IMG/VR virus record: IMGVR_UViG_2537561618_000007
Length of the DNA stretch: 16,450 nt
From: a virus
Lineage: Duplodnaviria > Heunggongvirae > Uroviricota > Caudoviricetes
Direction: 5' to 3' (one strand)
Shown piece after piece: positions 5,080 through 5,974 of this stretch (its first letter is position 1; every line of letters starts with the position of its first letter). Made by a program: the position numbers and the translations under genes. A model generated the notes under the pieces. It searched no databases and was not told the DNA's origin. It saw only the letters and a program-made list of their open reading frames with translations.

Positions 5080-5974
5080 TCTTCTGCTCGATTTTGGACA
5101 TCCGGTTGCTTATTACCCTGGGCTCGTTAAATACATGGGAAGTCCGCACGCTGTTATTTTCTTTGGTCAGATTTTTTACTGGCAGGATAAAGCACATGCA
5201 GCGGAAGGCGTACATAAAACGCGTGAAGAGATACAACACGAAACCGGACTTACATTTGAACAACAGGCTGTAGCGCGTAAGCATCTTGTGTCCAGAGGCA
5301 TTTTGGTTGAAACCAACAAGCGTCTTGAGCACAAAATGTTCTACCGTATAGATTGTGAGCGCCTTAATGAAATTATCAATGAAAACAATCAGTTTTCCCG
5401 AAATGGGGAAACCCGTTTTCGGGAAACTGTAAAACCCAATTTCGCGGAGGAGGGAAAGCCTTCACCGCGGACACGGGAAACCCCTCGCCGCGGAGAAGGG
5501 AAAACCAATTTCGATCTTACAGAGAATACAACAGAGATTACTTCAGAGAATACTACAGAGAGTAAAAACACTATTGGCGCATCCGCTGACGCGTCTGCAC
5601 CAGCGCGTTCTTCCCGACAGGAATATTCACCGGAATTTGAACAGGCCTGGCAGGAATATCCAAAACGTGCTGGTGGTAACTCAAAATCCGCAGCCTTCAA
5701 AGCCTGGAAAGCCCGGCTCAGGGAGGGAATAAAACCTGAAGCCATGCTTGATGGCGTGAAACGCTATGCTGCCTGGGTACGTGCCACAGGAAATACCGGC
5801 ACACAGTTCGTGAAGCAGGCTGCGACGTTCTTTGGACCCGATCGTCACTTCGAAGACTTCTGGCAACAGCCAGCCGCTCCCAGAGGTGGGCGACAGCGAC
5901 AGGTCGATGTCCTGGCTGGCCTGGGAGCCATGTCTGACAAATTCGGTAAATCCAGTGACAAACTGACATTCTGA
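5066..5974 (+). CDS. Replication initiator (lambda O-like replisome organiser) with an internal iteron origin
   Basis: RBS GGAGG at 5056..5060, ATG at 5066. Iterons and an AT-rich tract lie inside the coding region, as in lambda O. Followed by loader and helicase genes. Confidence 0.65.
   Translation: MRPSDLLLDFGHPVAYYPGLVKYMGSPHAVIFFGQIFYWQDKAHAAEGVHKTREEIQHETGLTFEQQAVARKHLVSRGILVETNKRLEHKMFYRIDCERLNEIINENNQFSRNGETRFRETVKPNFAEEGKPSPRTRETPRRGEGKTNFDLTENTTEITSENTTESKNTIGASADASAPARSSRQEYSPEFEQAWQEYPKRAGGNSKSAAFKAWKARLREGIKPEAMLDGVKRYAAWVRATGNTGTQFVKQAATFFGPDRHFEDFWQQPAAPRGGRQRQVDVLAGLGAMSDKFGKSSDKLTF
5393..5575 (+). repeat. Putative origin of replication: 4-5 iteron-like direct repeats followed by an AT-rich tract, inside the O-like gene
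   Basis: Repeated units GGGAAACCC/GGGAAAGCC/GGGAAAACC paired with CGCGGAG/CCGCGGA at roughly 23-bp spacing across 5405..5510, then an AT-rich A/G-skewed tract 5516..5575. Confidence 0.5.

Follow-up and report, generated by a model that had tools for sequence, protein, structure and literature searches.

The annotated replication origin of phage lambda (ori-lambda) consists of four dyad-symmetric 18-bp iterons, spaced 20, 24, and 23 bp, followed by a purine-rich A+T tract, all within gene O. Dimers of the O protein bind each iteron, and the O-some makes the AT-rich DNA next to it less stable; O contacts DNA through its N-terminal part and P through its C-terminal part; when the AT-rich region suffers in-frame deletions, the origin is lost, yet the truncated O can still complement (PMC6022878). 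The iteron plasmids RK2 (initiator TrfA) and F (RepE) have a winged-helix initiator, direct iterons, and an adjacent DNA-unwinding element (DUE) with same-orientation repeats of ~12–13 nt (PMC10797057). We analysed an element at positions 5399–5570 of the IMG/VR virus record IMGVR_UViG_2537561618_000007 (16,450 nucleotides; this whole stretch is called the window below), which is very probably the replication origin of a lambdoid prophage, built like ori-lambda and situated in the linker-coding part of the initiator gene.

An earlier note on this DNA had described repeats spaced by about 23 bp, followed by an AT-rich, A/G-skewed tract, all inside a coding sequence, and this description is borne out. 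The repeat block (5399–5513) is formed by five 23-bp units that abut head-to-tail and share the dyad-symmetric consensus CGaAnncGGGAAAcCCnnnTTCG, whose arms are CGAA/TTCG (outer) and GGG/CCC (inner); the palindrome in each unit is imperfect (5–8 of 11 pairs), and the unit junctions are occupied by CGCGGAG or CGCGGAC. The degenerate flanking unit upstream (Table 1) and iteron 1 are the two arms of a palindrome, the flanking unit being the left arm; the flank around it is of low stability, the 40-mer at 5364 having rank 6 among the least stable. A repeat-finder check, which the note had proposed for 5380–5580, gives a statistically supported periodic repeat. Tandem Repeats Finder (TRF) reports a period-23 array over the units. 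Lag-23 autocorrelation at the array is 0.63–0.67 (window mean 0.25 ± 0.05), which is the maximum across all window positions and lags 10–40, i.e., the strongest periodic signal in 16.4 kb. The core GGGAAACCC, with at most one mismatch, has 14 matches in the window vs. 3.4 ± 1.8 expected, and 0 of 200 shuffles reach 14; four of these matches lie inside the 115-bp block, in register at multiples of 23 bp. Unit starts fall at codon phases 0, 2, 1, 0, and 2, and the core GGGAAACCC is read as GET, KP, GKP, ETP, or GKT depending on the frame. Since 23 is not divisible by three and the units are read in three frames, a codon repeat is excluded, and the 23-bp repeats evidently function as DNA, not as peptide.

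The tract that follows (5514–5570, 57 bp) has 68% A+T, with 65% purine on the top strand. Nowhere in the initiator gene is GC lower (0.30), and the gene's least stable 40-mer (z = 3.1, 99.9th percentile of the window) lies here; it ranks third among the least stable 40-mers of the 16.4 kb, after two that begin at 16204 and 3973 and are not in the initiator gene. The tract proves to be a structured repeat itself, which refines the earlier description: directly after the period-23 array, TRF reports a period-12 array (5518–5561, 3.7 copies), with AGAWTAC cores at 5523–5529, 5535–5541, and 5547–5553 and a degenerate fourth core, AGAGTAA, at 5559–5565. The combination AGAWTAC-N5-AGAWTAC is expected by chance 0.01 times per window. 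The 12-bp period encodes TENT/TEIT/SENT/TESK. DnaA boxes, integration host factor (IHF) sites, −10 hexamers, and primase trinucleotides, sought in the tract by eye only, are absent or too short to mean anything. Iterons and tract both lie within the open reading frame (ORF) 5060/5066–5974, at codons ~114–171 of 304. A GATC (Dam) site at 5512–5515 spans the junction of iteron 5 and the tract; it is also seen in the E. coli L004 type and in Yersinia and is missing from the AH07, L006, and L010 types, hence it is not a conserved part of the element.

The initiator matches phrog_270, "replication initiation protein" (E = 4.9e-65), and, over residues ~107–277, DnaD-like and primosomal PHROG families; its RefSeq twin is labelled "LvrA C-terminal domain-related protein," and Pfam (at E ≤ 0.01) and NCBIfam scans yield no match. 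In the AlphaFold model, residues ~21–111 form an N-domain with a predicted local distance difference test (pLDDT) score of 80–94 and the order helix–helix–helix–strand–helix–helix–hairpin–helix, and the C-domain is helical, of low confidence. Residues 112–188, with pLDDT below 50, are predicted to be disordered; this stretch between both domains is the portion encoded by the units and the tract. Every Foldseek neighbour of the N-domain is a winged-helix DNA binder, the staphylococcal RepA_N Rep–DNA complex (5kbj/4pql) among them, at weak E-values (0.01–0.1), and the model comparison supports a winged-helix fold only, with no family assignment. Membership in Rep_3 or RepA_N was considered and rejected, as there is no Pfam match and the Foldseek hit to 5kbj/4pql has E ~ 0.05 only, beside generic MarR/ArsR winged helices. 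The N-domain family comprises 3,674 cluster representatives at E ≤ 1e-3, in which the domain is always N-terminal; over its ~105 amino acids, the invariant alignment columns follow the pattern Q-x-x-Y-W ... E-T-G ... R-L-E-H. The C-domain is common to phiP27 L17 and Burkholderia phage DC1 gp19, whose origin modules are different or divergent.

The gene had been called O-like, and this holds for its architecture, its PHROG labels, and the natural chimeras with a lambda-O C-domain; it does not extend to the protein family, for Phage_rep_O (PF04492) is undetected in the initiator, while lambda O scores 5.7e-36, and hhalign of the N-domain profile vs. lambda O gives a probability of 0.2%. The C-domain in the window is of the phiP27/DC1 type, a lambda-O-type C-domain being present only in the chimeric relatives L048, L004, and L010. 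The initiator is thus O-like in the three respects named and, judging by these profile comparisons, not a Phage_rep_O member; it belongs to a large unnamed superfamily of winged-helix phage initiators (phrog_270 and relatives).

Functionally and in layout, the window element is an analogue of ori-lambda, with an initiator outside Phage_rep_O. In both cases the origin is inside the initiator gene, between the domain-coding parts, and the A+T tract is on the promoter-distal side of the iterons; specificity is in the N-domain and the iterons, with an exchangeable C-domain; and the gene stands in the early-right operon, upstream of the gene(s) for helicase loading. Unlike ori-lambda, the window has five units, not four, in strict 23-bp abutment; its iterons are CGAA..GGGAAACCC..TTCG, those of lambda ATCCCTCAAAACGAGGGA; in place of lambda P there are a DnaC-like loader and a phage DnaB-like helicase as partners; and the sharp AGAWTAC 12-mer array has in lambda a degenerate counterpart only, if any. 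Unlike RK2 and F, there is no Rep_3-type protein with two winged-helix domains here (no Pfam match), and the origin is inside the gene; binding of the AGAWTAC repeats as single-stranded DNA (ssDNA), as in the RK2 and F Rep proteins, may be put forward as a hypothesis only. Phage LC567818, which represents the "Eru7" type (Fagerlund et al. 2022, PMC8951638), has the same initiator gene (95.6% identity over 91%) and an iteron and tract segment identical to that of the window. The phiP27 genes L17/L18/L19 share the C-domain (~95% identical in DNA) and the DnaC-like and DnaB-like genes; L17 differs in having an HTH_36 N-domain, five palindromic repeats TCAGAWTCTGR, its own AT-rich 24-mers, and no AGAWTAC array.

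The Rac ydaU/oriJ locus of E. coli K-12 was considered as the same element and rejected, having a DUF1376 protein, different repeats at 33-bp spacing, and no array. The internal repeats of Rac ydaU, AA(G/A)CAGATGTTCAA (L127 2472–2563, NC_000913 ~1421471–1421562), are spaced 33, 33, and 12 bp, ahead of the DnaC-like ydaV, and may be the sequence of oriJ, for which papers give nothing but the name.

We also analysed an unbiased sample of 26 genomes chosen by N-domain homology alone, blind to DNA repeats (Yersinia, Morganella, Proteus, Serratia, Burkholderiaceae, Pasteurellaceae, Acinetobacter, Comamonas, and others). The best period right after the N-domain is 23 bp in 21 of these 26 distant homologues and 22 bp in two more; the AGAWTAC array comes after the units in 24. 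Unit sequences vary from lineage to lineage; for example, some Burkholderiaceae and Comamonas have TGCGGAAAGCGCA, and Pasteurellaceae have ACATTCCCCAATGT. Exactly five units, with the consensus CGaAnncGGGAAAcCCnnnTTCG and identical phases, are present in each of E. coli, Yersinia, Morganella, and Serratia, although the linker peptides differ. Among the matches listed, 116 tract-bearing viral loci, retrieved by an exact 26-mer of the tract, fall into five N-domain clusters (at 80% identity) that map one-to-one onto five iteron types, and two of the iteron types are each found with C-domains from two different families. These distributions support co-segregation of the iteron type with the N-domain type, while C-domains appear to be swapped.

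The same exchange is seen in phiP27 L17, where a shared C-domain goes with another N-domain and other repeats, and in natural chimeras. Locus L048 has an N-domain and iterons of the window type (with one mismatch over 115 bp) joined to a C-domain of the lambda-O type (38% identical to lambda O 171–270, E = 4e-26), the crossover being inside the tract at ~5553; the L010-type C-domain shows 53% identity to lambda O 157–274. In nature, the window's block of N-domain and iterons can therefore be exchanged for the half of O-type initiators that recognises the origin. The lambda-P-like gene expected after the L048 initiator was not found, a Dam-family methyltransferase being there instead (L048 1647–2300, −); with no P-like or DnaC-like loader next to the initiator, the L048 element may rely on host loaders or be decayed. 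Indirect support for autonomous replication comes from a circular 40.8-kb Arsenophonus phage-plasmid, in which ParM/ParR adjoin the module, made up of a homologue of the N-domain, a DnaC-like gene, 23-bp units, and the array. A homologue of full length (40% identity) is also seen in a circular 37-kb phage-like "plasmid" of Enterobacter cloacae (NZ_CP104840; L158 3300–3440), where a gene with a toprim domain (primase-like) follows in place of DnaC/DnaB, and the 23-bp units alternate between GGGGAAAACCA and TGCGGAA(A/T)TTCCGCA in a 69-bp super-repeat.

The tract has a much wider distribution than the iteron sequence of the window. Its 40-bp segment 5513–5552 recurs at ~97.5% identity in otherwise unrelated initiator genes of many E. 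coli genomes (coordinates in Table 1); a tract search finds a match in 1,634 of 5,426 E. coli genomes, and 22 of 30 evenly spaced rows are tract-only, with five 23-bp units of different sequence preceding the tract each time. In the exact 26-mer scan of viral contigs, 8 of 8 upstream sequence clusters among the matches listed have a best period of 23 bp. Related arrays are present in initiator genes of Klebsiella, Pantoea, Acinetobacter, Vibrio, Pseudomonas, Burkholderia, Bacillus, and Staphylococcus phages. In the examined cases (E. coli, Pantoea, Bacillus, Staphylococcus, Burkholderia) the array is immediately 3′ of 22–23-bp units; in Bacillus phage PM1, Staphylococcus phage 37, and Burkholderia phage DC1 these are directly followed by ACAGAGATTACTACAGAGA.

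The spacing of the cores varies, being 13–14 bp in seven homologues, in different codon phases, and 11 bp in one plasmid gene; in one metagenome-assembled genome the cores are in yet another, third phase. In nine GC-rich loci the G+C content of third codon positions (GC3) is 0.25 in the tract vs. 0.67–0.84 across the rest of the gene, and the Thr codons, whose third positions are not fixed by the search pattern, are ACA or ACT in 46 of 46 cases in the tract vs. 24 of 140 elsewhere (Fisher p = 3e-26), a bias that points to selection on the tract at the DNA level. Thus, the AGAWTAC array is conserved at the DNA level across proteobacterial and Firmicute phage initiators of the superfamily. It also seems to travel with one initiator superfamily. 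The N-domain profile of the window, compared with the N-domains of other array-bearing initiators, gives hhalign 96.4% (E = 1e-9). Individually tested, DC1, two plasmid genes, and Staphylococcus phage 37 are significant and AH07 and PM1 marginal: the N-domain of Staphylococcus phage 37 ORF012 is homologous (hhalign 95%, hidden Markov model E = 4e-7), while those of Pantoea phage AH07 gp45 and Bacillus phage PM1 gp10 reach hhalign ~60%. These three phages have 22–23-bp units, then an AGAWTAC array, in the same position as in the window; they differ in iteron sequences, hosts, and C-domains (PF09524, Phg_2220_C, in Staphylococcus phage 37 and AH07). L004 is tied to the superfamily only via ~60% identity to the AH07 type. 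The array is absent from three initiators outside the superfamily, lambda O, phiP27 L17, and Rac YdaU.

By analogy with lambda, we infer initiator binding, its dimer stoichiometry, melting, helicase recruitment, and origin activity as follows. Transcription of the early-right operon would yield the initiator, whose winged-helix N-domains would bind, as dimers, the five dyad-symmetric 23-bp iterons (CGAA..GGGAAACCC..TTCG). With the 23-bp phasing, neighbouring dimers would assemble into a nucleoprotein complex that resembles the O-some and puts the DNA under strain; the low-stability AGAWTAC tract alongside would then melt, and the C-domain would recruit the phage DnaB-like helicase and the DnaC-like loader onto the opened strands.

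The suggestion of the earlier note that the element mirrors ori-lambda and is a likely replication origin is supported by the layout, the 23-bp period, the co-segregation of N-domain and iterons, and the conservation in distant homologues, so far as these can be judged from sequence. Several points weigh against it. The literature contains no experimental evidence on any member of the initiator family and no description of this origin that we could find; the Eru-typing papers on these Shiga toxin (Stx)-type phages make no mention of iterons and describe no origin of replication. The initiator has no detectable sequence homology to lambda O, and a sequence search of the PDB returns no solved relative. 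The viral loci of the linkage test were selected by the tract itself, and the linkage of N-domain and iterons could partly reflect physical adjacency, the mosaic junction being just downstream. Among E. coli alleles the N-domain, iterons, and tract are equally invariant, so that this comparison has no power on iteron constraint.

Four other explanations were considered. The 23-bp units might be sites of the initiator or another regulator that serve autoregulation, copy control, or handcuffing only, with the strands opened and replication begun elsewhere in the prophage. Plasmid iterons do have control roles as well (PMC10797057), and unwinding at this locus is deduced; however, the units always directly precede the gene's least stable segment and a conserved array, i.e., the layout of the functional lambda origin, the GGGAAACCC match scan finds no second iteron cluster in the window, and a promoter scan near the units is at chance level, which together make a purely regulatory role improbable.

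Equally, the tract might be conserved merely as a recombination linker for the exchange of N- and C-modules, with no role in initiation. Among E. coli alleles the density of segregating sites rises about tenfold right after the tract (from ~3 to 31 per 100 nt), the L048 crossover is within it, and the almost identical 40-bp patch is found in unrelated initiator genes of many E. coli genomes; by these comparisons the tract doubles as a mosaic junction between the N-domain/iteron block and the C-domain. However, recent exchange cannot explain why phages of Staphylococcus, Bacillus, Burkholderia, Pasteurellaceae, and Acinetobacter retain the core, at spacings that vary and in opposition to the codon bias of the host. 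A junction role is compatible with an unwinding role, and the junction is most likely an additional property of the tract; that it is the only one we regard as improbable, too.

Quite improbable is action of the element as RNA, e.g., as mRNA hairpins governing translation or stability of the initiator message. RNA of 5385–5575 does fold better than shuffles (z = −4.5, 0/200), but because of the dyad symmetry of the units, which are themselves the hairpins; the tract is unpaired in the centroid structure, the iteron families keep the dyad symmetry and the 23-bp phasing and no common RNA structure, and no Rfam family matches at the origin region. Finally, the repeats might be a repetition of codons for a flexible linker, acidic or threonine-rich, and have no function as DNA. 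This reading, an objection foreseen in the earlier note for the acidic case, agrees with the disordered linker encoded here and with a 12-bp tract period that is divisible by three, but is hardly credible given the three reading frames of the units, the varied spacing and phase of the cores in relatives, the departure of GC3 and Thr codon choice in the tract from the rest of the gene, and the lambda deletions that abolish the origin while O still complements (PMC6022878).

Returning to the array within the proposed origin, repeats in DUEs normally differ between replicons (PMC10797057), which makes the shared AGAWTAC core notable. That core spacing varies and that the array is tied to the N-domain superfamily both favour recognition core by core, perhaps with the initiator reading the cores as ssDNA, as the RK2 and F Rep proteins and DnaA do (PMC10797057). 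Our tentative proposal, which we consider conceivable but somewhat doubtful, is that the array serves the origin in a sequence-specific way, is kept across phyla, and belongs with one large, unnamed superfamily, being most plausibly read as ssDNA by a conserved surface of the N-domain, much as TrfA and RepE read the 13-mers and DnaA the DnaA-trio, and doubling as the module crossover point; such a reading by a conserved surface would keep the array fixed while iteron specificity diversifies. It is possible that the tract is a plain low-stability element plus a recombination linker. The array has no description in the searchable literature, older or subscription-only work (e.g., phage replication-module reviews) being outside the search, and within that scope the cross-phylum AGAWTAC array appears undescribed.

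The analysis locates a probable origin for a prophage type common in pathogenic E. coli, including Stx1a, Stx2a, and Stx2d phages of the "Eru7" neighbourhood, whose replication regions have so far been typed by gene content only. Toxin output is believed to be affected by replication capacity. The initiator family, for which Pfam and NCBIfam gave no match here, seems to obey the lambda rules, the N-domain reading the iterons and the C-domain recruiting the helicase machinery. The natural specificity variants, together with the chimeras, are a ready set for studying DNA recognition by winged-helix initiators, and the AGAWTAC array is a mutable target for studies of origin opening and a simple signature to locate phage origins.

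TABLE 1. Coordinates of the candidate origin, the initiator gene, and associated features (window positions; for the last row, positions in the loci named).
Feature	Position	Strand	Basis and remarks
Replication initiator gene	5066..5974	+	302 aa from RefSeq ATG; ORF opens at GTG 5060
Winged-helix N-domain coding part, presumed iteron reader	5066..5398	+	Foldseek, family search
Degenerate flanking unit	5376..5398	no strand	3′ end TTTTCC; inverted repeats and unit register
Iteron 1	5399..5421	no strand	CGAAATGGGGAAACCCGTTTTCG; 8/11 dyad pairs; core GGGAAACCC at 5406
Iteron 2	5422..5444	no strand	GGAAACTGTAAAACCCAATTTCG; core GTAAAACCC at 5429
Iteron 3	5445..5467	no strand	CGGAGGAGGGAAAGCCTTCACCG; core GGGAAAGCC at 5452
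Iteron 4	5468..5490	no strand	CGGACACGGGAAACCCCTCGCCG; core GGGAAACCC at 5475
Iteron 5	5491..5513	no strand	CGGAGAAGGGAAAACCAATTTCG; core GGGAAAACC at 5498
A+T-rich purine-skewed tract, presumed DNA-unwinding element	5514..5570	+	Composition, stability, repeat scan
C-domain coding part, presumed helicase/loader recruiter	5571..5974	+	Homology to phiP27 L17, Burkholderia phage DC1 gp19
DnaC-like helicase loader (AAA+, IstB-like)	5985..6863	+	PF01695 E = 1.6e-15; phrog_50 E = 6.4e-90; RefSeq start
DnaB-like replicative helicase	6860..8251	+	PF03796 E = 3e-72; TIGR00665 E = 1.2e-91, below curated cut-off
Four tandem tRNA genes	9373-9683	+	CAT anticodon (Met by ARAGORN, Ile in RefSeq), Arg-TCT, Thr-TGT, Gly-TCC
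Near-identical 40-bp patch elsewhere	L004/L005 2501-2545; L003 2500-2545; L154 1500-1545; L155 1505-1545

The region is the early-right operon of a lambdoid E. coli prophage: the initiator gene is followed by the genes of the helicase loader and the helicase, and beyond the latter by ninH and Q (in the RefSeq twin) and four tRNA genes. Stx1a, Stx2a, and Stx2d phages carry near-identical initiator genes, as do ~100 complete E. coli genomes. A promoter and terminator scan near the origin gives nothing above chance; a "terminator" call at 5411–5394 was rejected as the palindrome of unit 1, and an antisense ORF at 5389–5745 as likely spurious, the stop-free antisense lengths being inconsistent across relatives.

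In Stx phages, tRNA genes and stx are placed just downstream of Q. The tRNA cluster of the window is directly 3′ of the Q antiterminator gene (8757–9173); no stx gene is evident in the window, and in a near-identical O121 prophage a holin gene is next after the tRNAs. Upstream of the origin, Rfam matches to isrK (58 bits, 4043–4119, +) and C4 antisense RNA (75 bits, 4144–4231, +) stand in tandem before an ORF of the Rha family (4415–4849); the pair is an antisense-RNA antirepressor control module of the P1/P7 type, and it overlaps an opposite-strand ORF (3638–4312, −) whose C-terminus matches Gp49/DUF891. In the late region, an ALIL pseudoknot (111 bits, 14183–14298, −), the frameshift signal of IS3-family transposases, together with the ORFs 13371–14039 (−) and 14253–14579 (−), marks an IS3/IS911-like insertion. 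The near-identical O121 prophage contains IS911 copies and truncated genes, and, given these and the insertion in the window, the prophage may be defective.

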